27,843 bases of DNA. Origin: Promethearchaeota archaeon. Its GTDB lineage: Archaea; Asgardarchaeota; Lokiarchaeia; Sigyniarchaeales; SOKP01. The translations under genes were made by a program, and so were the position numbers. This document shows, piece after piece, positions 1,889-27,489 of the stretch (positions are counted from its first letter, which is position 1; the number at the start of each line of letters is the position of its first letter). The stretch spans positions 1 to 27,843 of the forward strand of contig JBHLON010000039.1 of NCBI GenBank assembly GCA_048940445.1. Reading direction: 5' to 3'. The notes under the pieces are model-generated. The model searched no databases. It was not told where the DNA came from and saw only the letters and a program-made list of their open reading frames with translations.

Positions 1889-3040
1889 ATGATCTGGAAT
1901 TTAATGCAATTTGGGACTCAATTAGATCCACTTAGCCTAGTAATTCAAATATTATGGTTTGTATTGATCTTTGTTTCAATTTTCTATGGAACTCGGATTC
2001 AAGCTTGGAGGTCACAAAAAGAAATAGAGTCTGGTTTAGCTAAGCTTAAGGAATGGGATGATGAATGTAAACAACTATTACTAACTAATGTCAAGAAGTA
2101 TGCAGATAAAAAAGAAACTGACAAAGACTTAATGCTGAAAATTGAAGATTTTTTAACCTTTATCGCAATTACTCCAGTTTCGCTTGATCCATTTGGAATT
2201 GTTCCCAAAATTGATCATGTAATTGACGTAAGAGATAACAGATTTGAAGAAGAAGTAAGTACATTAGCACCAAATGTAATAAAGGGCTCTGCCGATTCTC
2301 AAAACATGGAAAATTTGTTTGAAGCCGTAATGGCTGTGGATTATGTTTACCGCTTAGTCAAACACTTTCTAATTTTAGGGAAAAAGACCAAATCTTATAT
2401 TCTATTGGTACAGATTTCAATGCAAATGAACTTAATCACAGCAATGGCAAAATCTTATTATCATGCTGCTAAAGCTTTCTCAGAGGGAAGCCCTATAGGA
2501 GACGCTCTAGGACCTCTTGTGGCAGGTAATTTTGTTAGAAATATCACAGAAAGAGATGATGTTCAGGCAGAAGAAATTGCAAAAGATACAATAGTACAAG
2601 AGATTAACTTTGAAGATAGACTTGTTTACGTTGTTCGAGCAAAAGGACCAGGTGGGACTGTGGGAAAACCAGGAACGGCTATAAAAAAAATTGTCGAAGA
2701 ACATGGAGATAATATCTCTAGAATCATTATGATTGATGCAGGATTAAAACTTTCTGGAGATAAGACAGGTTCAATTGTTGTTGGTGTAGGCGCTGCAATT
2801 GGAGGGATTGGTGTAGAAAAGTATTATATTGAAGACTCATCAACAAAAAAAGCAATTCCTATTGACGCTTTAGTATGTAGAGAATCATTAGAAGATGCAA
2901 TTACAACAATGCGAAGAAGTATTACTCAAAGTGTTCCAAACTTAGTGGAAAAGGTTAAAATGGCAATAAGAAAACGTACTGAGAAAGGGACAAAAGTCAT
3001 TGTGGCAGGTATTGGAAATACAATAGGTATAGGAGTCTAA
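1889..3040 (+). CDS. DUF1512-family archaeal membrane-anchored protein
   Basis: N-terminal TM; PVSLDPFGIV, PIGDALGPLVA, RAKGPGGTVGKPG, IIMIDAGLKL, GVGAAIGGIGVEK and the terminal GIGNTIGIG are motifs I recognise from DUF1512. Confidence 0.8.
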   Translation: MIWNLMQFGTQLDPLSLVIQILWFVLIFVSIFYGTRIQAWRSQKEIESGLAKLKEWDDECKQLLLTNVKKYADKKETDKDLMLKIEDFLTFIAITPVSLDPFGIVPKIDHVIDVRDNRFEEEVSTLAPNVIKGSADSQNMENLFEAVMAVDYVYRLVKHFLILGKKTKSYILLVQISMQMNLITAMAKSYYHAAKAFSEGSPIGDALGPLVAGNFVRNITERDDVQAEEIAKDTIVQEINFEDRLVYVVRAKGPGGTVGKPGTAIKKIVEEHGDNISRIIMIDAGLKLSGDKTGSIVVGVGAAIGGIGVEKYYIEDSSTKKAIPIDALVCRESLEDAITTMRRSITQSVPNLVEKVKMAIRKRTEKGTKVIVAGIGNTIGIGV

Positions 3041-3168
3041 TAACTTATTTACATATAAATTACAAAACTGTAATAATATTTTCTAAACCTATATTTGACA
3101 AAATTAATTTAAAATCAAAGCTAATATCAATCATAAATCTAAAAAATTTCAAATAAAGAGTGATAATA

Positions 3169-3627
3169 ATGAAAGTATTTTCGGAAGAATGGTCAGATGC
3201 TTATGTGAAAGCTCTTAACAATAATCCTAACTATAGAGCTGCAGCTTCTTGGTGGGAAGGAGATTTTATCTTTATTGTTGAACCAAGCGGAAATTTAGAT
3301 CACGAAATTAAAATGTTTATAGGATTGTATAAAGGAGATTGCACAGGAGCGAAAGTTTTTGCTCCAGGTGAAGAATATGACGTTCTACCACCTAATTCCC
3401 CTCCCAGACCATTAAAAGAAGGTGAAAAAGTTGGTGCAGAATTTGTATTTTCAGGACCTTATGATAATTGGGTAAAGGTTCTAAAGAAAGAACTAGATCC
3501 TATACAAGGGCTAATGGCAGGGAAGTTTAAGCTAGTTGGGAACATGGCAAAAGTTATGCGTGCTACAAAGGCAGCACAAGAAATGGTTGTAGCCACTACA
3601 ATGGTTGAAGGCACGGAATTTTATTAA
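3169..3627 (+). CDS. SCP2 sterol/lipid-binding domain protein
   Basis: FSEEW...LNNNPNY...WEGDF; FVFSGPYDNWVKVLKKELDPIQGLMAGKFKLVGNM matches the SCP2 C-terminal signature. The ATG at 3169 (after an SD-like GAGTGAT) is preferred over the GTG at 3160. Confidence 0.85.
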   Translation: MKVFSEEWSDAYVKALNNNPNYRAAASWWEGDFIFIVEPSGNLDHEIKMFIGLYKGDCTGAKVFAPGEEYDVLPPNSPPRPLKEGEKVGAEFVFSGPYDNWVKVLKKELDPIQGLMAGKFKLVGNMAKVMRATKAAQEMVVATTMVEGTEFY

Positions 3628-3915: not shown

Positions 3916-4920
3916 ATGGGCTTATCCACAAAAAAATATTATGTAAAAGATTTAATCATAGACGATGAATATGGAACTATAAGCAGTAAAGCAACCATTA
4001 ATGAAGCCGCAAAAAAGATGAAAGAATTAGGCATACCTGACTTAGTTGTCGTAGAAGAAGGTACTGAAAAAGTTTTGGGAATAGTTGGCGACTTCGATAT
4101 CGTTCAAGATGTCATAGCGGAAGGATTAGACCCAAACACCTCAAACGTGATTAAAGCAATGTATAAAATCCCACCAGTGACATTAGACACTCCTGTAACA
4201 GAAGCGTTTACAAGAATGAGAGACTTACAAGCGAATGTCGTACCTGTTGTAGAGAATGACAAATTACTAGGCGTTTGTTCAATTCATGACACTTGGAGTT
4301 ATATTCCTGATGAGAACGTCGATGAAATTGGTCTTATACAAGTTAACAATACACGGATGGCAGAATTTCTATTTACAACCGTGTTTTCAATTTTAGCAGT
4401 TCTAATTGGAATAATCTTACCTTTTGGGGGTGCTTATGGACTTTTTGCAGCAAATCAGATAAATTTATCTAGTTTATTTGGCATAGTATTTCTTTTTAAT
4501 GGAAGAGTAACGTTTCAATTGTTCGAAGCAAAGGGCATTAATTATTTTGTCTCATATGGTGATATATCTGCTTTAAATGGACCGATTTGGATATCAATAA
4601 TGGTATTTAGTGTTTTAATTATAATTTTTGGGGTAATAAGTTTAATCTCTCTAATTTATGTTAGCTATACGGGAAAAAGGTATAATCTTACGGAACTTTT
4701 ATTACGAAATGTTTTTCCAATACTTCTCATCGTTTTTATGGTGATTGAATGGATCCTATTTGGAAGTGCATTTGCGCTCTCTGGATTATCAACTGTTGTT
4801 GCCCCCGATGCTTTAGGGTTATCTATGTCAATAATTTCAATGGTTCTGATAATCGCAGCAATAAACCATGACCGATTTTTCAGACAAAAAGGAACATCGA
4901 GAAATAGAGAGGTGAAATAA
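3916..4920 (+). CDS. CBS-domain pair fused to a C-terminal four-TM membrane domain
   Basis: Two CBS repeats (ATINEAAKKMKELGIPDLVVVEE...VLGIVGDFDI; DTPVTEAFTRMRDLQANVVPVVENDKLLGVCSIHD) followed by four hydrophobic helices. Confidence 0.8.
   Translation: MGLSTKKYYVKDLIIDDEYGTISSKATINEAAKKMKELGIPDLVVVEEGTEKVLGIVGDFDIVQDVIAEGLDPNTSNVIKAMYKIPPVTLDTPVTEAFTRMRDLQANVVPVVENDKLLGVCSIHDTWSYIPDENVDEIGLIQVNNTRMAEFLFTTVFSILAVLIGIILPFGGAYGLFAANQINLSSLFGIVFLFNGRVTFQLFEAKGINYFVSYGDISALNGPIWISIMVFSVLIIIFGVISLISLIYVSYTGKRYNLTELLLRNVFPILLIVFMVIEWILFGSAFALSGLSTVVAPDALGLSMSIISMVLIIAAINHDRFFRQKGTSRNREVK
4909..4915 (+). promoter_or_regulatory. Shine-Dalgarno GAGGTGA for the 4925 gene, embedded in the end of the CBS gene
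   Basis: GAGGTGA ends 9 nt before ATG 4925; the intergenic gap is only 4 nt. Confidence 0.7.
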
Positions 4921-4924
4921 GTAA

Positions 4925-5032
4925 ATGCCTCGAGGTGGTGGATCTAGAGGTGGCGGATTCAGAGGCGGCGGTGGTTTCAGAGGCGGCGGCTTTGGTGGAG
5001 GTGGATTTCGAGGTGGCGGTTTTAGAGGAGGT
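4925..5032 (+). repeat. GC-rich coding repeat for the (F)RGGG tract
   Basis: Encodes MPRGGGSRGGGFRGGGGFRGGGFGGGGFRGGGFRGG with mixed Gly/Arg/Phe codons; much higher GC than the flanks. Confidence 0.85.
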
Positions 5033-6421
5033 CCTGCTAGTTTCCGTACTGGTGGTTATCGATCAAATGGTGTACCTTTTGGCAGGACCGGAGCATCACG
5101 AATAGTTTCACGTACTCCACGTGGACCTTATAGGCATTCATACTATCGTCCCTATAGAGGTTACTATTGGTGGGGATATAGACCATGGTACTGGCGTTGG
5201 TGGTATTCTCCATGGTGGTCTGGATATTGGTATAGACCTTGGTACTATAGCCCTGCGTATGTAGGCGGTGGAATTTTTTTCGTTATTATACTTGGATTAA
5301 TTATTCTACCTTTTCTTGGTGTAGGATTATGGTTTCCTTTCACAAGTGCTGACTCCACTGGAACCGTGAACTATCGATCTACTGAGACTCTTTATTATAA
5401 TGAATACTGGTATGAACATGAATATACAAATATAGGTAATACCATTACCTATTCAGTTGACTCACGCGACAGTTTAATAACATTTGCGATTTGGGATCAA
5501 CCCTTTGATAATTTACCTACTATTAATATACCAGGTAGTAATCCTCTTGATTCATTTAACCTGACCTATAATGAATATCAGTATTTTTGGCTTTTCTTAA
5601 ACCCAGATTCATCTATTACTTATAATTTTGATGCAAATAGTTCTGTTGATTTCTTTATAGCAGACGGTTATCAACTTTACCAATGGAATCAAGGAGGAAG
5701 TCCCAGTTTTTACAATGAAAGTTTAAATACCCTGGGTGAAACTGGATCTTTACAAATTTCTGAGGCAAATGATTACTATTTAGTATGGTATAATGATCTT
5801 TCTGGAACTGTTAACGTTAATTATACTGTAAGTTATTATGCTGCAAATGTTATTGATTTTTCTGGAGCTTATGCAGTCCATGAAGCTGTTTATATTACAA
5901 ATGGAATGTTTACCGTTCCTAATTCAGGTGATTGGTACTTCTTCATATATTTTGATCCTTTTTATTCACCGAATGTATCAACTACAATTACTTTTGACGT
6001 TACATATGATACAGGAGTGACCTATGCTGAAAGATGGACCGATATTTCATGGGTGTTAATTATAATATTAGTAATAATTGTAATTATCGTTATTGTAGCT
6101 TTCGCAGCAAGAAGAGGCCAAAAAACTCAAAGCCTAAAAGCAAAGAAGGAAGAAAAACCAGAAACTGCTAAGATAGCCAAGGAGACTAAAGAAACCAAGG
6201 AGGTTGCTGAGGTTGAGCTTGGAAATTGTCCTCGTTGTGGTTTCAGTGTCAGAAAAGACGCAAATTTTTGTCCGAAATGCGGTGCCAAGATAGAAGGTAG
6301 AAGTATTGGGACCTCAGAAATAATAACTCCTGCTGAAGCTAAAGTATGTTCCTTCTGCGGAAGTAAGCTCTCAGAAAAAGATAAATTCTGTATCTGGTGC
6401 GGAACACCCATTGAAAAATAA
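4925..6421 (+). CDS. Two-pass membrane protein: RGG/Tyr-Trp-rich N-terminus, duplicated extracellular beta-domain, C-terminal double zinc ribbons
   Basis: Six RGG in aa 3-36; Y/W/R/P-rich aa 68-112; TM about aa 117-139; about 230-aa domain with 5 N-x-S/T sequons; TM about aa 374-395; CPRC/CPKC and CSFC/CIWC zinc ribbons. Confidence 0.85.
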   Translation: MPRGGGSRGGGFRGGGGFRGGGFGGGGFRGGGFRGGPASFRTGGYRSNGVPFGRTGASRIVSRTPRGPYRHSYYRPYRGYYWWGYRPWYWRWWYSPWWSGYWYRPWYYSPAYVGGGIFFVIILGLIILPFLGVGLWFPFTSADSTGTVNYRSTETLYYNEYWYEHEYTNIGNTITYSVDSRDSLITFAIWDQPFDNLPTINIPGSNPLDSFNLTYNEYQYFWLFLNPDSSITYNFDANSSVDFFIADGYQLYQWNQGGSPSFYNESLNTLGETGSLQISEANDYYLVWYNDLSGTVNVNYTVSYYAANVIDFSGAYAVHEAVYITNGMFTVPNSGDWYFFIYFDPFYSPNVSTTITFDVTYDTGVTYAERWTDISWVLIIILVIIVIIVIVAFAARRGQKTQSLKAKKEEKPETAKIAKETKETKEVAEVELGNCPRCGFSVRKDANFCPKCGAKIEGRSIGTSEIITPAEAKVCSFCGSKLSEKDKFCIWCGTPIEK

Positions 6422-6510
6422 CTAACATTAGTAAAATTATAATAATTTTCAAACTTTTTTTTCTCATATTTGGAATCATAAGAAAATGAGTTAATTCTAG
6501 GAACATTAAG

Positions 6511-7209
6511 ATGCTGTTAAAATTTCTAATATTATATTTACGTGCTAAATTTGAGAAGGTTGTAGCGAATAGCATTTTAATGATAATTTTATTCTTTTGG
6601 TTTGTTCCAATTGAAATTTTGATTAATTTGAAATGGTATTTATATCTTTTATTTTTTCTATCATTCCTATTTATCCTATATTTGCTAATTTTAAGACGAA
6701 TTAAAAGAACTTGTATAATACTGGATTCAAAATTAAATCGTGATAATTTTTCAGAACAAATGGGCATTGAACCTTTAAATAATGGAAAATTAATGAAATC
6801 TTATAGAAGATGGTTGATAGACGATGCAAAAAACCATCACATAGATATTAATTTTAAGTCAGAAACTAAGTACTATGGCACAACGTGCTGTTATTATTGT
6901 TGTTATTGTACTGTTCCATTATTGTTAGTCTTTGGAACATTTTCGCTTGTCTATTCACCACAATTTGCACGATGGGTAATTTCACCATCCGTAATTTTCT
7001 TAGCTATCTTAATTTTTTTTCTCATTGAAAGATCATCCAATAAGGAAATCTATAAAAAATTAGATTCTGAAATGAAACGAATATTATTTGAAGAAGAGAC
7101 ATCTTATAAGCCTTTAAAAAAAAGAAAAATGACATTTAAATATAAAGCATGGTTGTTGGAAAATCAGAAGAAGGAAGATTCCTTTTTCACTGATATGTAT
7201 AAAAAGTGA
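6511..7209 (+). CDS. Hypothetical membrane protein with a two-fold internal repeat and a Cys-rich motif (start uncertain; alternative ATG 6580)
   Basis: Two (TM-TM-helical) units sharing LDS-xxx-R-xx-F-x-E-xxxxx-PL-xxx-K-xxxx-Y-xx-WL; CCYYCCYC before the third TM. Confidence 0.65.
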   Translation: MLLKFLILYLRAKFEKVVANSILMIILFFWFVPIEILINLKWYLYLLFFLSFLFILYLLILRRIKRTCIILDSKLNRDNFSEQMGIEPLNNGKLMKSYRRWLIDDAKNHHIDINFKSETKYYGTTCCYYCCYCTVPLLLVFGTFSLVYSPQFARWVISPSVIFLAILIFFLIERSSNKEIYKKLDSEMKRILFEEETSYKPLKKRKMTFKYKAWLLENQKKEDSFFTDMYKK

Positions 7210-14761: not shown

Positions 14762-16492
14762 ATGACTCTTCTGGACATAGAACAAAAATATTTGAAAAGT
14801 CTAGAATTATCTTTAGGATTTCCTATTCCTGAAGTGTCAGAGATACATAGCTATACTATTGGTTACACATTAACAAATGGTCACATTTCGGGATTGAGTC
14901 TCTTCTCTTCTAATTTAAAGTTTCTCCCCGAAAAAATTAATGTTCTGAGCAATTTAAAGCAACTTCTTTTAAGGGGAAATCGGCTAAAAGTTATACCAGA
15001 AGAATTATCGTTTATTTTATCATTAAATAATTTAGACTTAAGTGAAAACAATTTAATCAAGCTACCTAAGGCGATTTTTTCACTTAATTCCTTAAAGGAG
15101 TTATCTTTAGAGGCTAATAAGTTAATATTTATACCCGATTCAATAGGATCTTTAAAATCTCTTGAGGTATTAGATTTAAGTGGCAATATAATTACTAACG
15201 TGCCTAATTCACTCTGTATATTGTCAAATTTAAAAATGTTGGATTTAAGTAGAAATCTACTACATGAACTTCCTGAAACGATTGGAGATTTGAGATCATT
15301 AGAAATATTGTATCTTAGCAACAATGATCTGACTAAACTTCCAGAATCAATTAGCTCATTAAAATCTTTAAAAAGGCTCAATTTGAGGAATAATCAATTA
15401 GAAAGGCTTCCAAATTCAATTGGAGATTTAGCTTCTTTATCTTCTTTATTTTTAAAAGGAAATAGATTATTAAGTCTTCCTGATTCAATTGGTAAGTTAT
15501 ACAACCTTAAATATTTAGGCTTATCTAATAATCAATTAAAAAGCTTACCTAAAGATATAGGTTCACTAAATTTATTAGAAAGTCTAAGTTTAGGATCGAA
15601 TTTTTTAACTGAAATTCCACATTCAATCAGTTCACTTAAGTCATTGCTAAAATTAGGGCTTTCAAATAATGATCTCAATTCTTTACCAGAGCTTTATAAT
15701 TTAATTTCTCTAAAAATTCTAAATCTAGAACGAAACAATTTAAAGAAAATTCCAAATTCAATTAAAAATCTTACTGCTCTTGAGACATTAAAATTGGATC
15801 GAAACGAACTCGAAGCTTTACCATCAGATATTAAATTCCTCAACTCATTAAAAGAACTCGATTTATTTGATAATAAATTAGAAAACATTCCAAATACTAT
15901 TGGTGATTTAAAATCTTTAGAAATTTTAGATTTAAGTAAAAATTTATTAAAAGATTTACCAGAGAGTTTGGGGTTATTATCATCACTAAAAGAATTAGAT
16001 ATTTCTAATAACAGATTAGAATGTTTACCTAATTCAATTGGGAAACTGTATATGTTAAAAAATTTTATACTAGGGTTTAATCGTTTGAATTCTATTCCGA
16101 AATCAGTTGGACAATTACAAAATTTAGAAACTTTAGATTTAGGAAAAAATCATTTAAACAGTGTCCCAGATACAATTGGGTCTCTAAAATCACTTAAAAG
16201 GTTGTATTTGTATTATAATGAAATAGATGATATCCCCGCATCTATTGGAAACCTTGAATCTTTAAAATATTTATATTTAGGAAATAACAACTTATCAAGA
16301 CTACCCAATTCTATTGGCAAACTCAAGTCTCTAAAATATTTATTCCTAAGGGCAAATAGTCTTTCTGAGTTACCAAGATCAATTGAATCCTTGCCCTCCC
16401 TTAAATATCTCAATATTGAAAAGAATAATGAAATCAAATTTCCTTTTATATTAGATAGATTAAAAGCTCAAGATGTAAAAGTTATTAAATAG
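14762..16492 (+). CDS. Stand-alone leucine-rich repeat protein (about 23 LRRs of 23 aa)
   Basis: Repeating LxxLxLxxNxLxxLPxSIGxL; short N-cap (EQKYLKSLELSLG...GYTLTNGHISGLSL); no TM or other domain. Confidence 0.95.
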   Translation: MTLLDIEQKYLKSLELSLGFPIPEVSEIHSYTIGYTLTNGHISGLSLFSSNLKFLPEKINVLSNLKQLLLRGNRLKVIPEELSFILSLNNLDLSENNLIKLPKAIFSLNSLKELSLEANKLIFIPDSIGSLKSLEVLDLSGNIITNVPNSLCILSNLKMLDLSRNLLHELPETIGDLRSLEILYLSNNDLTKLPESISSLKSLKRLNLRNNQLERLPNSIGDLASLSSLFLKGNRLLSLPDSIGKLYNLKYLGLSNNQLKSLPKDIGSLNLLESLSLGSNFLTEIPHSISSLKSLLKLGLSNNDLNSLPELYNLISLKILNLERNNLKKIPNSIKNLTALETLKLDRNELEALPSDIKFLNSLKELDLFDNKLENIPNTIGDLKSLEILDLSKNLLKDLPESLGLLSSLKELDISNNRLECLPNSIGKLYMLKNFILGFNRLNSIPKSVGQLQNLETLDLGKNHLNSVPDTIGSLKSLKRLYLYYNEIDDIPASIGNLESLKYLYLGNNNLSRLPNSIGKLKSLKYLFLRANSLSELPRSIESLPSLKYLNIEKNNEIKFPFILDRLKAQDVKVIK

Positions 16493-18549: not shown

Positions 18550-20562
18550 ATGCCTAGCTTAAATACTATTAAAGTAAAATTATCTGATGAGTTACCTCCT
18601 AATCCTGCCTTTGAAGAAGGTATAAGAAGAGCTCCTAATCGTGGATATTACCTATCACGAAAAGAGACAGCATTAGCATTAAAAAATGCGTTGAGATATA
18701 TCCCTGAAAAGCTTCACTTAAAATTGATTCCAGAATTTTTAGATGAGTTGATTAAAAAGGGAAGAATTTATGGATATAGATATATGCCGCATAGAGAAAT
18801 AAAAGCTAAAGCTATAGAGGAGTATAAAGGGATTTTAGAAGCGCGAGCAATACAATTAATGATTGATAATAATTTAGATCCAAATGTGGCTTTATATCCA
18901 TATGAATTAGTAACATATGGGGAAAGTGGTCAAGTATGTCAAAATTGGATGCAATATCAATTGATAAAGAAATATCTTGAAATAATGAATGAAAATCAGA
19001 CTCTGGTAGTGATGTCAGGACATCCTTTAGGACTTTTCCCTAGTAAACGGGAAGCACCCAGAGTAATTATGACAAATGGTCTAATGGTTGGGATGTTCGA
19101 CACACCTCAAGATTTTCGATTATCGGCAGCATTAGGTGTTGCTAACTACGGACAAATGACTGCGGGTGGGTGGATGTATATAGGCCCTCAGGGGATAGTT
19201 CATGGCACATACATTACTTTACTTAATGCTGGAAGATTATATCTTAACATTTCTCCCAAAGAAGGTCTTAATGGAGTTTTATATTTAAGTTCTGGGCTAG
19301 GTGGTATGAGTGGTGCCCAAGCAAAGGCAGTTGAAATAGCTGGAGGTATAGGAGTATTAGCTGAAGTAGATATGTCACGAATTCAAACCAGGTATGAGCA
19401 AGGATGGGTTAGTAAAATATCGGACAATCTTGAGGAAATTTTTAAATTAGTTGATGAATATAGAAAGAAAGGTGAAACTATATCTATTGCATATCATGGT
19501 AATATAGTGGATATTTGGAAGTATGTAGTAGATAAAGATATAAAAGTTGAATTAGCATCAGATCAAACTTCTTGTCATGCAGTTTATGATGGAGGTTACA
19601 CTCCTATGGGAATGAGTTTTGAGGAAGGCAGAGAATTATTAAAATCTAATCGAGAAAAATTTGTTAGTCAAGTTAATGAATCATTGAAGGAACATTATAG
19701 ATTGATTAAAATAATGTCTCAGAGAGGCACAAAGTTTTGGGATTACGGCAATTCCTTTCTTAAAGCTGTTTACGACGCGGGGGTTAAAGATATAGCGATT
19801 AAAGGTGATCCTAAAAATGGGTTTATATTTCCCTCCTATGTACAAGACATTATGGGTCCCCTTTGTTTTGATTTAGGATATGGTCCATTTCGTTGGGTTT
19901 GTCTCTCTCTAAAACATTCAGATTTAATTAAAACAGACAAAGCCGCAGCATCTTGCATTGATCCAAACAGAAGAGCTCAAGATCGTGATAATTGGTTTTG
20001 GATAAAGAATGCTGAAAATAATAATTTAATTGTAGGGTCTCAAGCTCGTATATTATATGCTGATAGAGAAACTCGAATAAAAATAGCATTAACTTTCAAT
20101 AAGATGATTAGAGACGGAGAAATAGGTCCTATAATGTTAGGTCGAGACCATCATGATACAGGTGGAACAGATTCACCATTTAGAGAAACATCAAATATAC
20201 TAGATGGGAGTAATTTAATGTCAGATATGGCACATCATTGTTGGGCAGGTAATATAGCAAGAGGGATGACTATGTGCGTACTTTCTAACGGAGGAGGAGT
20301 TGGCACCGGGAAAGCTATAAATGGTGGCTTTGGATTAGTATTGGATGGTTCAGAAAGAGTGAATAATATTATTAAACTTGCAATTGATTGGGATGTTTCT
20401 TGTGGTGTAGCTCGGAGAGCTTGGGCGCGAAATGAAAATGCACTTGAAGCTGCAAAGGTATGGAACATGGAACATAAAGAGGGTTATATAACAATACCAT
20501 TTGTAGCTGACGATGATTTAGTGAATAATTTAATAGATGAATTCTTTAAAAGCAATAAATAA
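18550..20562 (+). CDS. hutU: Urocanate hydratase (long, about 670-aa form)
   Basis: LALKNALRY, MIDNNLD, ELVTYG, GQMTAGGWMYIGPQGIVHGT, GLGGMSGAQ, SDQTSCH, GYGPFRWVC, GRDHHD, SPFRET. Confidence 0.97.
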   Translation: MPSLNTIKVKLSDELPPNPAFEEGIRRAPNRGYYLSRKETALALKNALRYIPEKLHLKLIPEFLDELIKKGRIYGYRYMPHREIKAKAIEEYKGILEARAIQLMIDNNLDPNVALYPYELVTYGESGQVCQNWMQYQLIKKYLEIMNENQTLVVMSGHPLGLFPSKREAPRVIMTNGLMVGMFDTPQDFRLSAALGVANYGQMTAGGWMYIGPQGIVHGTYITLLNAGRLYLNISPKEGLNGVLYLSSGLGGMSGAQAKAVEIAGGIGVLAEVDMSRIQTRYEQGWVSKISDNLEEIFKLVDEYRKKGETISIAYHGNIVDIWKYVVDKDIKVELASDQTSCHAVYDGGYTPMGMSFEEGRELLKSNREKFVSQVNESLKEHYRLIKIMSQRGTKFWDYGNSFLKAVYDAGVKDIAIKGDPKNGFIFPSYVQDIMGPLCFDLGYGPFRWVCLSLKHSDLIKTDKAAASCIDPNRRAQDRDNWFWIKNAENNNLIVGSQARILYADRETRIKIALTFNKMIRDGEIGPIMLGRDHHDTGGTDSPFRETSNILDGSNLMSDMAHHCWAGNIARGMTMCVLSNGGGVGTGKAINGGFGLVLDGSERVNNIIKLAIDWDVSCGVARRAWARNENALEAAKVWNMEHKEGYITIPFVADDDLVNNLIDEFFKSNK

Positions 20563-20577
20563 TAAATATTAGTTCTT

Positions 20578-22092
20578 ATGATAGAAAAATTCAAATTTGG
20601 TCAAGATCGCTTAACTGTTGATATATTGTTAAAATTAGCAAGAGGAAACCTTCAAGGTATATTAACTGAGCAAACTAAATCAAAAATTAATAAAAGTTTT
20701 GAAGCAGTACAAGCAATTGCAAAAGGAGATAAACTTGTATACAGCATAAATACTGGTTTTGGATCTCTATGCACAACTAAAATTTCAAGAGATGAAACAA
20801 GGAAACTTCAAGAAAACTTACTTAAAAGCCATAGTGCGGGAATAGGAAATCCTGTAGATCAAGAGATTGCTAAATTAATGTTAATTATTAAGGTTCATAC
20901 TTTATCTAAAGGATATTCGGGTTGTTCTTTAGAACTAATTAGACGTATTATGTGGCATATAGAAAATAATTATATTCCTCTAGTACCCGAACAAGGTTCA
21001 GTTGGTGCTTCAGGGGATCTTGCACCTTTAGCGCATTCATTTTTACCATTGATAGGATTAGGTTTTCTATCGAAAGATGGAGAAAACTATCGACCATCTA
21101 AAGAAATATTAGATGAAAGTGGGTTAGAACCATTAAAGCTTCATGCTAAAGAAGGCGTTGCTCTGATTAATGGCACCCAATTCATATCAGCTTATGCTGT
21201 AAAGATAATTGAAAATTTTATTAATTGCATTGAGCATGCAGATATAATAGGAGCTACTACTCTCGAAGCATATTTAGGATCACCCCAACCTTTTGATGAA
21301 AGGTTGATAAATCTTAGACCACATCAAGGAGCCCAAATTGTTGCGAGAAATTTTAGAGAATTTCTAAAAGAATCCCAATTTGTAGAATCTCATAAGGATT
21401 GTGGAAGAGTACAGGATCCATATTCTATTCGGTGCATACCACAAGTCCATGGGGCTTCTAGAGATGCTTTAAGTCACTTAATTGAGAAAGTAGAATGTGA
21501 ATTAAATTCTGTAACAGATAATCCTATAGTTTTCAGTGAACATGATACTGTAAGCGGAGGAAACTTCCATGGTCAGCCACTTGCCTTACCATTAGATTAT
21601 GTAGGTCTAGCTGCATCTGAAATAGGAAACATTTCTGATCGTAGAATTTATCTTCTTTTAGAAGGAAAATGGGGTCTTCCTCCTTATCTCATCAAAGAAT
21701 CTGGACTAAATTCTGGTTTTATGATAGCACAATATATTTCAGCAGCTCTTGTAAGTGAGAATAAATCTATGTGTTTTCCTGCCAGCGCAGATAGTATTCC
21801 TACTTCAATGGGTCAAGAGGACCATGTTAGTATGGGCTCAATTAGTGCTAGAAAAACAATAAACATTGTAGAAAATCTTGAAAAAATTTTAGCAATTGAA
21901 CTTTTATGTGCTTCACAAGCTTTTGATTTTAGGAGACCATTGAAATCAAGTAAAATTTTAGAATCTTGCCACAGTTATATTCGAACAGTGATTCCTCATA
22001 TTCATAATGATGTAATTCTCTCAGAATATATAGAAGCAAGTTTGGATATTTTAAGAAGTAAAAAATTAATTGAATTAGTCAATCTAAGATAA
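20578..22092 (+). CDS. hutH: Histidine ammonia-lyase
   Basis: NTGFG, LLKSH, GSVGASGDLAPL (MIO-forming ASG), LINGT, QDPYSIRCIPQVHGA, GGNFHG, QEDHVSMG. Confidence 0.97.
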   Translation: MIEKFKFGQDRLTVDILLKLARGNLQGILTEQTKSKINKSFEAVQAIAKGDKLVYSINTGFGSLCTTKISRDETRKLQENLLKSHSAGIGNPVDQEIAKLMLIIKVHTLSKGYSGCSLELIRRIMWHIENNYIPLVPEQGSVGASGDLAPLAHSFLPLIGLGFLSKDGENYRPSKEILDESGLEPLKLHAKEGVALINGTQFISAYAVKIIENFINCIEHADIIGATTLEAYLGSPQPFDERLINLRPHQGAQIVARNFREFLKESQFVESHKDCGRVQDPYSIRCIPQVHGASRDALSHLIEKVECELNSVTDNPIVFSEHDTVSGGNFHGQPLALPLDYVGLAASEIGNISDRRIYLLLEGKWGLPPYLIKESGLNSGFMIAQYISAALVSENKSMCFPASADSIPTSMGQEDHVSMGSISARKTINIVENLEKILAIELLCASQAFDFRRPLKSSKILESCHSYIRTVIPHIHNDVILSEYIEASLDILRSKKLIELVNLR

Positions 22093-22105
22093 GCATATAG
22101 ATAAA

Positions 22106-23449
22106 ATGTATGTAACAACCACAGTACCAGTAAAAAAAACAAAAAGAAAGAGAGAATCATTAAGTTCTGTTATGAATAAAGGAAGTTCTCCAAGTTTGAT
22201 AATAATCCATGCAAATCAGTTAGTTACTTTAGATTCAAAATATGGCGTTCCACGAATAGGAGATCAAATGAAAGAGCTTGCAATCATAGAGGATGGAGCT
22301 ATCGCAGTTAGGGATAATATTATTGAATTTGTTGGGACTACTGAAGAGCTATATTCTTTTTTCAATATAAACAGAGATACGGTAATAATAGATGCAAAAA
22401 ATAGACTTGTTACTCCTGGATTTGTAGATCCTCACACTCATATTATCTTTGATGGTTCAAGAGAAGATGAATTAGAAATGAAACTAAATGGGTTGAGTTA
22501 TCTTGAAATTTTGAAAGAGGGTGGAGGGATTTTAAAAACAGTTAGAGCAACAAGAGAAGCAAGTTTGGAGAAATTAGTGGAGAATGGGAGAAAGATATTG
22601 GATCGTATGATAAAATTTGGCACTACTACGATTGAAACTAAATCAGGTTATGGTTTAGATGTAGAAAATGAAATTAAATCTCTAAGGGCAATTAAAATGT
22701 TAAACAACGAGCATCCAATTGATATTATTTCAACGTTTTTAGGAGCCCATATGATTCCAATAGAATTTAAAGATAAAAAAGAAGATTATGTAGATTTAAT
22801 AATATCGGAGATGATTCCTAAAATTGTTGATGAAGATTTAGCTGAATTTTGTGATGTATTTTGTGAGGAGGGGATTTTTTCGATTGAGGATGCAAGAAAA
22901 ATATTAACTATTGCTAAACATTTTGGTTTAAAACCTCTAATTCATGTTGATGAGATTTTTGATACAAACGGAGCCTTATTGGCAGCTGAATTAGATGTTA
23001 CTCAAGCTGGGCATCTTTTAAAATCGAATGACGATGGATTAAAAGCAATGGCTAAAGCGGGAGTAATAGCAACGCTCCTACCCGGAACACCTTTCTCATC
23101 AATGTTAAAGGAATATGCCCCTGCTAGAAAGATGATTGACTTTAGAATTCCGGTTGCCTTGGCAACAGATCTTAACCCCAATTGCTGGACAGAATCGATA
23201 CAAATGATAATGTCATTGGCTTGCTACAATATGAAGATGTTTCCTTCTGAAGCCTTAACTGCAACTACACTTAATGCTGCATGCGCAATCCAAAGACAAG
23301 ATGAAATAGGAAGTATTGAAATTGGTAAAAAAGCAGATATTTTAATTTTTAATATCCCTAACTTTAACTTCTTACCTTATCAATTTGGGATTAATTTAGT
23401 TGATAAAGTTATTAAAAATGGAAAAATAGTATGTAAAAATAATTTATAA
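22106..23449 (+). CDS. hutI: Imidazolonepropionase (start may be ATG 22172)
   Basis: PGFVDPHTH, GGGILKTVRATR, ETKSGYGL, FLGAH, CDVFCE, ALATDLNP. Confidence 0.96.
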   Translation: MYVTTTVPVKKTKRKRESLSSVMNKGSSPSLIIIHANQLVTLDSKYGVPRIGDQMKELAIIEDGAIAVRDNIIEFVGTTEELYSFFNINRDTVIIDAKNRLVTPGFVDPHTHIIFDGSREDELEMKLNGLSYLEILKEGGGILKTVRATREASLEKLVENGRKILDRMIKFGTTTIETKSGYGLDVENEIKSLRAIKMLNNEHPIDIISTFLGAHMIPIEFKDKKEDYVDLIISEMIPKIVDEDLAEFCDVFCEEGIFSIEDARKILTIAKHFGLKPLIHVDEIFDTNGALLAAELDVTQAGHLLKSNDDGLKAMAKAGVIATLLPGTPFSSMLKEYAPARKMIDFRIPVALATDLNPNCWTESIQMIMSLACYNMKMFPSEALTATTLNAACAIQRQDEIGSIEIGKKADILIFNIPNFNFLPYQFGINLVDKVIKNGKIVCKNNL

Positions 23450-23458
23450 TGATTTTAG

Positions 23459-24376
23459 CTAAAAATTAAAATAGTATTCTAATAAATGCTTTTCTTCAAG
23501 TTTAGGGGGATTCTGTAGCTGTAGATAATATTCTAAAGTATTAAGTGCAGCTCCAAGTGGTAGAACTCCCACTAATTCAGTACCTATTACATTAACTCCA
23601 TATCGTGCGGCCTCAATCCTTACAAGCTCAATTTGTCTATAAAGTGGAGTCTTTCTATAATTGATATTACTTATTCCAACTTGGACATAATCTTTTCCCT
23701 CTAACACAGTACCCATTGCTTTAACATTAACCAAACCGCCAGATCGTAAATGAATAGCCTTGGCAACTTTTTTAGCGATTTTCACATCTTTAGTTCCAAG
23801 GTTGATATTAAAACTGATGAGAGGTAATCTAGCTCCTGTGATCATCGCTCCTGCTGTTGGATGTAATTCTGAAGGCCCAAAATCAGGCTTACGTTCAGGA
23901 TCTAATTTAATAGCTTCTTTTAACCCCTCATATTCCCCTATTCTTATATTATCTATATTTTTTCTCTCTAATTTACGAGCAGATTCCTCATATAAATAAA
24001 TTGGAATGTTCTCTTTCACCATTATTTCAGCAAATTTTATAGATAAATCAATAGCTTCCTTTATTGTGACATTTTGAGCTGGAACAAATGGTACAACATC
24101 TACAGCACCGATTCTGGGGTGTTGTCCTTTATGTGTATTCATATCAATTAATTCGATTGCTTTCTTGGAAGCACTTATATTTGCTTTTAAGACAGCTTCT
24201 GGAGTTCCTAGAAAGGTTACTACAGCACGATTATAATCCTTATCATATTGTACATCTACAATTTTAGTATCTGGTGTTTCTTTAATTTTATTTACTATTC
24301 TATCAATTATACTAGCATCTTTTCCTTCACTATAATTGGGAACCGATTCTACAATTTTCTTCTTTGAACTTTCCAT
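23459..24376 (-). CDS. Glutamate formiminotransferase (FTCD transferase domain only, no cyclodeaminase)
   Basis: ESVPNYSEG, DKDYNRAV, HKGQHPRIGAVDVVPFVP, IRIGEYEGL, GARLPLISFNINL, ELVG; 305 aa. Confidence 0.93.
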   Translation of the reverse strand: MESSKKKIVESVPNYSEGKDASIIDRIVNKIKETPDTKIVDVQYDKDYNRAVVTFLGTPEAVLKANISASKKAIELIDMNTHKGQHPRIGAVDVVPFVPAQNVTIKEAIDLSIKFAEIMVKENIPIYLYEESARKLERKNIDNIRIGEYEGLKEAIKLDPERKPDFGPSELHPTAGAMITGARLPLISFNINLGTKDVKIAKKVAKAIHLRSGGLVNVKAMGTVLEGKDYVQVGISNINYRKTPLYRQIELVRIEAARYGVNVIGTELVGVLPLGAALNTLEYYLQLQNPPKLEEKHLLEYYFNF

Positions 24377-26403: not shown

Positions 26404-27489
26404 ATGTTCTTTAAAGATCAAGAAGGTTTGTGGAAAGTCAAAAATTATCGTTTATTAGGGCTGTTATTTGTATCTGTCGGAGTAATAATAAGAATCATTA
26501 TGCTTATCTATTATTATATAGTTCATCTTGATCCAACTTTTCCATGGGGAGATATCATGATAAATTATCACACAACAGATACTATGTTTACAGGTGAATG
26601 GATCTGGGCTCCGACAAAATTAGAATATCCTCCATTAACTTTATATTTGCTCTTAATATTAAAAGTTCTTTCTTTTGGCGTATTTGAATTATTTGTCTTT
26701 TATGCCTTTCTTTTAGAGATGCTTACTTCTCTTTTATTTTATTACATTCTTAAGAAATTTAACATTTCAAATGCACTGTTTGTTCTAGGTGTTTTTTTAA
26801 TTAACCCATTTGTTTTTTTAAATAATGTATTCAGCCCTTTTAATTGTGGTTATCATATTACTGATAGTATATTTTATCTGTTTCTAATTTTAGCTTTATA
26901 TTCTTATCCAAAAGAAGATAAAAGATTATTTTATCTGTTTTCTGGATTAACTATGTGTGCTAAATGGTTTACTTTACCAGCTGCCCCTTATTTTTTCTTT
27001 AAATTTCTTATAAGTAAAGATTGGAAAGAACTAAAAAGAATTTTAATCTACTTAGGATTACCTATTTTGATTTTATTAATTTCTCCGTTGTTATACTTAC
27101 CAAACTATATCGATCTTTATATTGGTTGGATTTCGGGCTCGAAATCTGCCCTTCCTTACCAACCACCTGTATATATAAAATTAATATTATTTGGGGGAAT
27201 CTTCTTAATTTATTTAATATTAAGAATACGAAAGGCAGATTTAGTTGAGATAACTTTTTTCTCAGTTATCGTCATGTTTTCTCTCATGTTTTGGAGAAGG
27301 CCTTACGTAAGATATCTAACCCCACTCGTATTATATGGTAATTTAAAGACAAACGAAAACATTTTGACGATTGATCTTAATTTAAAGATTACTCGTATTC
27401 ACTTTAGGATAGGAAATTATCTTTTTACTTATCTCTTATCAATTTTGGGATGCCTTGTAGCAATTGCGATGATAATTTTTATTCTTTAA
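26404..27489 (+). CDS. GT-C fold polytopic glycosyltransferase (GT87/DUF2029/PIG-M-like)
   Basis: About 10 TM; WGD in the first loop, EYPPL, INP, TDSI, AKWF, RYL. Confidence 0.65.
   Translation: MFFKDQEGLWKVKNYRLLGLLFVSVGVIIRIIMLIYYYIVHLDPTFPWGDIMINYHTTDTMFTGEWIWAPTKLEYPPLTLYLLLILKVLSFGVFELFVFYAFLLEMLTSLLFYYILKKFNISNALFVLGVFLINPFVFLNNVFSPFNCGYHITDSIFYLFLILALYSYPKEDKRLFYLFSGLTMCAKWFTLPAAPYFFFKFLISKDWKELKRILIYLGLPILILLISPLLYLPNYIDLYIGWISGSKSALPYQPPVYIKLILFGGIFLIYLILRIRKADLVEITFFSVIVMFSLMFWRRPYVRYLTPLVLYGNLKTNENILTIDLNLKITRIHFRIGNYLFTYLLSILGCLVAIAMIIFIL

Follow-up and report, generated by a model that had tools for sequence, protein, structure and literature searches.

Do two adjacent genes of an Asgard archaeon, here called A and B, encode a single membrane module, and if so, which of their parts are linked and what might the module do? 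The genes lie in a window of 27,843 nucleotides (the whole stretch of DNA that was analyzed), and their host is a Lokiarchaeia archaeon whose close relatives are Promethearchaeota and Lokiarchaeia records. A sequence-only reading of this DNA had proposed a membrane complex that couples a CBS pair and an extracellular cue to an RNA-binding or condensate-forming tail.

Genes A and B are tightly spaced and encode membrane proteins

Gene A (positions 3916 to 4920, forward strand, 334 amino acids), delineated from its open reading frame (ORF), Pfam matches, and an AF2 model, encodes a CBS pair followed by a four-helix membrane domain. Gene B (positions 4925 to 6421, forward strand, 498 amino acids) encodes a two-pass, APD-like membrane protein without a RING finger. 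The TAA of A and the ATG of B are on the same strand with a spacing of 4 nt, and a Shine-Dalgarno (SD)-like GAGGTGA (4909 to 4915, forward strand) lies within the last codons of A, 9 nt 5' of the ATG of B, so that both ORFs and the motif are where the earlier reading had placed them. A run of eight T residues 3' of B (6455 to 6462, forward strand) is likely to be an archaeal terminator. Distinct homologous A/B junctions have a gap of 0 to 9 nt and an SD-like motif in 57/57 cases, and 35 of the 57 homologous loci have six or more T residues within 45 nt 3' of B. By a crude ORF-based background, ~10% of same-strand neighbor pairs in the window's genome are equally close. The closeness of A and B exceeds chance expectation, and the two genes are almost certainly cotranscribed. 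Scans for sigma-70 promoters and hairpins, with models that do not suit archaea, gave chance-level results only, and a search of Rfam gave no match.

Both products are membrane proteins, as had been claimed, with four transmembrane (TM) helices in the AF2 model of A and two TM segments in B. The claim that neither has a catalytic domain also holds in Pfam and NCBIfam. HisKA, HATPase, and the MCP signal domain are absent, and the cytoplasmic parts consist of the CBS pair, a low-complexity tail, and zinc ribbons, in agreement with the statement that this is not a histidine kinase or chemoreceptor.

Gene A combines an acidic CBS pair with a four-helix domain

The CBS pair of A (Bateman module; residues ~8 to 131, positions 3937 to 4308, forward strand; Pfam E value, 3.7e-13) is acidic, and structure comparison gives it a Bateman fold (Z, 16.5; root mean square deviation [rmsd], 2.5 A over 120 residues). 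The ribose-phosphate motif of CBS domains is G-h-h-S/T-x-x-D/N (PMC11172384). The second motif of A is canonical (G-V-C-S/T-x-x-D125, residues 119 to 125), with the S/T and the D each kept in 88/88 homologues, and the first (residues 55 to 61) is a deviant, acidic variant, G-h-h-A-D-F-D. The CBS assignment made earlier is thus borne out by two repeats, a Bateman fold, and one retained canonical nucleotide site, and the pair probably binds a nucleotide. The net charge of the first 140 residues is -6 to -20 over 119 loci, and the CBS core domain in the window has a net charge of -8, compared with -3 to +2 for other CBS domains of the same genome.

The remainder of A (positions 4351 to 4863, forward strand) comprises four TM helices (residues 146 to 171, 224 to 252, 258 to 288, and 299 to 316 in the AF2 model; pLDDT, 82) and a small outer loop domain. 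Searches of Pfam, viral folds, PDB sequences, and Atlas features (≤0.81) gave no convincing family match for this part. Its occurrences are essentially confined to fusions with this CBS pair, in genomes that have the window's subfamily of B. Its topology recalls claudin-like tetraspans, a likeness that we take as a lead only; the Cys signature is absent. In genus g20 (L092:7020-7934 and L099:5670-6584), A is ~30 amino acids shorter and the outer loop is missing; in genomes G008 and G151, A is interrupted by TGA.

With the CBS-regulated membrane proteins MgtE and CNNM/CorB and the stand-alone CBS regulators DarB and AcuB, A shares a Bateman module through which adenyl nucleotide could gate a partner. 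In contrast with these proteins, A has a four-helix domain for which our searches gave no family match, one of its nucleotide motifs is acidic, and its partner is a GOLD receptor candidate rather than a transporter or enzyme. A could also be a small nucleotide-gated channel or transporter that follows MgtE/CNNM-like logic, with B as an accessory subunit. The order of CBS domains and then TM helices is that of MgtE, there are weak MgtE matches, driven by the CBS part (which also fills the fold-search lists for whole A), and polar residues are conserved in the membrane domain (E278/W279, D298, and R/D near 318 to 319). However, there are four helices only, and, as described below, linkage to B persists where A has no membrane domain. 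We therefore regard a channel as very unlikely.

B has a basic Gly/Arg tail and a double zinc ribbon

The N-terminal tail of B (positions 4925 to 5245, forward strand), predicted to be cytoplasmic, contains RGG/FRGG repeats, a conserved PFGRTG motif, and a Trp/Tyr/Arg-rich segment. It has 18 Arg/Lys residues and no acidic residue, for a net charge of +18. TM1 (approximately 5261 to 5332, forward strand, from hydropathy) follows, and TM2 (approximately 6041 to 6112, forward strand) precedes a basic stretch. A double zinc ribbon with four CxxC motifs (6227 to 6406, forward strand; DZR E value, 1.5e-11 in Pfam) forms the C-terminal end, with all eight Cys residues invariant and no RING after it. 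The combination of RGG tail and zinc ribbon that had been noted in B is therefore present, with six RGG in the first 60 amino acids, the highest count among the reading frames of the genome (the next best has three). By the positive-inside rule, both tails of B would be cytoplasmic.

RGG boxes bind RNA in eukaryotes, and the sequence-only reading had taken the RGG-aromatic tail to bind RNA or ribosomes or to form membrane condensates, with the CBS protein as regulator. RGG repeats are retained in 76/76 homologues examined (median, 4), with ~20 Trp/Tyr residues in the following 62 amino acids; ribosome-bound archaeal CBS proteins are among the PDB sequence matches; and such a role would be compatible with the model that we favor if the CBS pair masks the tail. 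The tail also shares clustered (F)RGGG repeats with the GAR/RGG domains of fibrillarin, nucleolin, and Gar1. In contrast with those domains, it is short (~40 amino acids) and is part of a membrane protein with no RNA-modifying domain. Moreover, the tails of the sister subfamily described below are R/S/G-rich with mostly 0 to 4 strict RGG, and protist tails are Gly/His-rich with almost no Arg, which indicates that the RGG motif itself is not conserved in the sister groups. Arg would be favored by the positive-inside topology alone, and no RNA-related family recurs among the neighbors. An RNA or condensate function is rather improbable, though still a serious alternative, and the tail may instead be a docking site for the CBS pair.

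The predicted B ectodomain is homologous to eukaryotic APD1-4 proteins

Between the TM segments lies an acidic ectodomain of 234 amino acids (positions 5339 to 6040, forward strand; Asp/Glu, 27; Arg/Lys, 3), modeled by AF2 (pLDDT, 93.8) as two nested beta-sandwiches, one inserted into the other, with a detectable internal repeat. The inner domain (positions about 5519 to 5854, forward strand) has the p24 GOLD fold by structure comparison. Its best match is p24beta1 (Z, 13.4; rmsd, 1.4 A over 87 residues), and it matches TMED1 with an E value of 1.3e-7. B resembles p24/TMED cargo receptors in the GOLD fold of the inner ectodomain (Z, 12.6 to 13.4, top three of four p24-type entries) and in its placement on the outer membrane face. 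It differs from them in having two nested domains, two TM helices, and long cytoplasmic tails, in lacking a signal peptide or coiled coil, and in sharing only 10 to 15% identity. GOLD-like folds are widespread among prokaryotes, and such a fold is no indicator of function.

APD1-4 (ABERRANT POLLEN DEVELOPMENT) of Arabidopsis are transmembrane RING E3 ligases (Luo et al. 2012, as cited in PMC6118397 and PMC13210498), with a domain set of Pfam PF16040, PF16041, and zf-C3HC4_3. Pfam APD1-4_N gives window B an E value of 0.036, under the cut-off, and matches 54 of 79 homologues, three of them over the cut-off; APD1-4_M is faint only. An ectodomain profile searched against PDB sequences gave no match. 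Against 1.8 billion proteins, an Asgard ectodomain profile recovered eukaryotic proteins from Balamuthia, Pellita, and Chrysoparadoxa; the Balamuthia and Chrysoparadoxa proteins, when scanned, carry both APD domains. Among Atlas structures other than its own, plant APD clusters come nearest, with TM scores of 0.57 to 0.60 across both nested domains (for the plant APD-RING cluster, 0.60 over residues 15 to 219, 180 residues), while prokaryotic entries in the same list cover mostly the inner domain. Comparison of the ectodomain with an APD template by hhalign gave an E value of 1.3e-18, with 3 archaeal rows among the 18 of the template. Based on the homologues that pass the Pfam cut-off, the recovery of protist proteins, and the plant structure match, we conclude from profiles and models that the ectodomain of B is homologous to eukaryotic APD1-4 proteins. 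The ectodomain, previously of no recognized kind, can thus be described as a nested double GOLD-like domain.

B and APD1-4 share a cytoplasmic N-terminal tail, a TM segment, a homologous nested ectodomain, a second TM segment, and a Cys-rich tail. Protist members of the family begin with a Gly-rich tail as B does, and many protist-type homologues have a Gly-rich tail and an aromatic stretch ahead of TM1. In contrast with APD1-4, B has a double zinc ribbon instead of a C3HC4 RING and an Arg-rich rather than a His-rich tail, has an operonic CBS partner, and falls in the sister subfamily of the eukaryote-related group. Because it has no RING, B is not a strict APD member.

Five NxS/T sequons are present in window B, and the family mean is 2.8 observed versus 3.0 in shuffled sequences. 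N-glycosylation sites are thus not enriched in the family, and the description of the ectodomain as "glycosylated" is unsupported. The ectodomain of B is also found fused into a probable beta-propeller protein or behind a TPR-like region (P0241 and P0242).

A and B are inherited as a unit in Asgard archaea

Linkage was surveyed in 161 genomes of the class by comparing the tables of A and B orthologues by eye. Orthologues of each gene are present in 107/161 Lokiarchaeia-class genomes, with A directly upstream of B in 104/107, and all five linkage exceptions (G132, G014, G135, G068, and G130) are cut by contig ends. With these queries, A and B are missing together from families f4 to f7 and several genera. 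Because the surveyed genomes are kin, the cases counted are not independent of one another. Family f16 (Heimdallarchaeote), which is probably Hodarchaeales (so labeled in one NCBI record, although NCBI labels are inconsistent), has the pair in 19 of 22 genomes, adjacent in 19/19. It includes Heimdallarchaeote SZ_4_bin2.246 (PMC10833476). The pair is also found in the cultured "Ca. Lokiarchaeum ossiferum" (NEF87_001692 and NEF87_001693, with a sister-type gene, NEF87_002101) and in "Ca. Harpocratesius repetitus." Lokiarchaeia-type RING-less pairs on short contigs of other-class genomes (L122, G229:C11; L129, G201:C264) are probably binning contamination.

The flanks of A/B are metabolic genes that are lineage specific and differ between lineages, which indicates that the unit is self-contained. 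In the window, the flank upstream of A (1889 to 3627) encodes a DUF1512 protein and an SCP2 sterol-carrier-like protein, syntenic in close relatives only. A gene-neighborhood comparison across Asgard genomes had been suggested as a check on the pairing; rather than homologues that occur independently, it shows a conserved, single-copy, two-gene unit. A and B probably work as one unit, and they are likely to form a physical complex. A complex prediction for A with residues 46 to 498 of B, without controls, gave a score of 0.30 (mark, 0.32) and is evidence neither way. The parts are known (CBS, GOLD, APD ectodomain, and zinc ribbon), and in the literature that we searched, neither the pair, nor an Asgard APD homologue, nor the locus tags are described, in keeping with the earlier statement that no prokaryotic system of this architecture has been described; a listing in tables of eukaryotic signature proteins (ESPs) in less accessible papers or supplements is possible.

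A soluble CBS partner points to the Gly/Arg tail

In two other Asgard families, f14 and f15, the same CBS subfamily is a soluble protein of 135 to 158 amino acids with shared motifs and no membrane domain (81 to 104 bits, compared with ≤28 for other CBS proteins; the match is reciprocal). All 11 soluble copies, from 10 genomes, adjoin a gene with a Gly/Arg tail. Of these partner genes, seven are APD-like, two run into contig ends, and two have no ectodomain. One of the latter consists of tail, TM hairpin, and zinc ribbon and lies upstream of the CBS gene, so the order is reversed; the other has only the tail and a single TM segment, with no zinc ribbon, and may be a decayed copy. A third ectodomain-less partner, on a metagenomic contig, starts 1 nt 3' of the CBS gene; a complete APD-like gene lies immediately upstream. 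These natural deletion variants of B are at L198:1416-3542, L180:2675-3624, and L184:930-1837. The soluble CBS gene beside a Gly/Arg-tail gene and the ectodomain-less partners are new here.

Since partners can lack the ectodomain or the zinc ribbon, what minimally accompanies the CBS gene is the basic aromatic tail together with TM1, and the three ectodomain-less partners suggest that the conserved link is probably that of the acidic CBS pair to the basic tail. A direct CBS-tail contact is somewhat favored by this genomic evidence, with complementary charge as weak evidence. A look for a TM-TM interface had been proposed as a check, but because the CBS partner is soluble in f14 and f15, the ancient link seems instead to be that between the CBS pair and the tail of B. 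The Gly/Arg tail is lost in a metagenomic group without CBS neighbors, and tails of eukaryotic homologues are Gly/His-rich. The tail can nevertheless exist without a partner in cis, as shown by second-copy APD-like genes of Lokiarchaeia and by the single-GOLD proteins P0298 and P0334, which keep a Gly/Arg tail and have no adjacent CBS gene.

These loci also bear on whether B is a structural cell surface or adhesion protein whose operon reflects coregulation without a complex. An acidic, beta-rich ectodomain and CBS-less tandem paralogue arrays in one lineage would fit such a role, but the genes stay linked where the ectodomain is lost, where A has no membrane domain, and where gene order is reversed, which makes such a role unlikely. 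One metagenomic contig (L134:3356-9685) carries four tandem paralogues of the B subfamily; they lack the Gly/Arg tail, and no CBS gene accompanies them.

RING-like fingers were probably gained independently

An ectodomain tree, which is unrooted and quick, has several long branches, and includes protist and presumed-eukaryotic rows and no plant or animal sequences, places the window's subfamily (Lokiarchaeia, f16, and the metagenomic group) on one side of a long branch (SH-aLRT, 100) and a second Asgard subfamily, together with the eukaryotic rows, on the other. The second subfamily is found in families f14 and f15 (NCBI labels one of the records as Euryarchaeota) and as a second copy in some Lokiarchaeia.

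Full-length B orthologues of f16 end in a conserved RING-like finger, C-x2-D...C-x2-C...C-x2-C...C-P-Y-C, for which zf-RING_4 is the best match in 16/16, below the cut-off. A module that is a membrane ubiquitin ligase system ancestral to APD1-4, with the RING lost in Lokiarchaeia, would account for this finger in all full-length f16 orthologues, for the TM-ectodomain-TM-finger layout shared with APD1-4, and for the E2 genes in the window's genome. However, the finger is of the C4C4 type with Asp as second ligand, not C3HC4. Related fingers match at 11 places in a single f16 genome; among the five genomes tested, they are expanded only in that genus, and the window's genome has no copy. The eukaryotic ectodomains are placed with the sister subfamily, which has no RING. 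Uniting f16 and the eukaryotes in one clade is rejected (AU test P value, 0.0005, under the tree model used), and with it a direct origin of eukaryotic APD from the f16 form that bears the finger. The protist homologues retrieved have no RING. Given the rejected clade and the expansion within the f16 genus, RING gain looks independent, which is the simpler reading, and we consider an ancestral ligase distinctly unlikely.

RING types on related membrane proteins vary: C4C4-like in f16, RING-H2-like in P0334, and C3HC4 in plants. P0334 (L197:3001-4125, Heimdallarchaeota labeled; P0337 is similar) has a Gly/Arg tail, a TM segment, a single GOLD-like domain, a second TM segment, a zinc ribbon, and a RING-H2-like finger, and is another candidate membrane E3. 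In the f16 genus, two-TM proteins at L170 and L172 (G227) carry the same C-x2-D finger, with no match to the APD ectodomain profile. PY motifs in eukaryotic tails are weakly in excess (7 observed versus 2.3 expected, in 5/21 proteins).

A/B as a candidate CBS-gated receptor or adaptor

We propose that A and B form one membrane module in which a CBS subunit gates an APD/GOLD-type receptor or adaptor, a model to which we give, as a whole, slightly less than an even chance. The nested GOLD-like ectodomain of B would bind a protein or glycoprotein partner outside the cell or in the membrane, and its cytoplasmic zinc ribbons would recruit a downstream effector. A would be the regulatory subunit, its acidic CBS pair docking on the basic Gly/Arg-aromatic N-terminal tail of B. 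Adenyl nucleotide at the single canonical CBS site would alter this docking, so that the energy state of the cell gates B. In the window's subfamily, the four-helix domain would tether the CBS pair beside B. Recognition of an RGG tail by a CBS domain would, if true, be a new kind of interaction to our knowledge.

The likeliest output of such a module would be the handing of membrane proteins to sorting or to turnover linked to ubiquitin; as window B has no RING, a separate ligase would act in trans. The varied RINGs on relatives and the E2 genes point weakly in this direction; no ubiquitin or ESCRT gene family is among the recurring A/B neighbors, and a ubiquitin or sorting output is possible but doubtful. 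More speculative still, and rather improbable, is an energy-gated GOLD-type cargo receptor whose CBS subunit reads adenyl nucleotides and masks or releases the RGG tail and which feeds membrane proteins to the ubiquitin-ESCRT pathway; it would have passed to eukaryotes as APD, which lost the CBS partner and gained RING or PY-type tails.

Asgard archaea encode ubiquitin and ESCRT machinery, according to passages of PMC9192718 that name no membrane cargo receptor or membrane ligase, and A/B is a conserved, testable candidate membrane receptor for this context. The APD family, orphan E3s in plants whose substrates are themselves unknown (PMC13210498), is extended back to archaea by B, with a nested double GOLD-like fold as its ectodomain, and a CBS pair acting on the Gly/Arg tail is suggested as its ancestral regulatory partner.

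Other genes in the window

Two ORFs, at 6511 to 7209 (232 amino acids, hydrophobic) and 26404 to 27489 (361 amino acids), are without a Pfam match. A leucine-rich-repeat protein of 576 amino acids is encoded at 14762 to 16492, and positions 18550 to 24376 hold a histidine utilization cluster (urocanase, aromatic amino acid lyase, amidohydrolase, and formiminotransferase).
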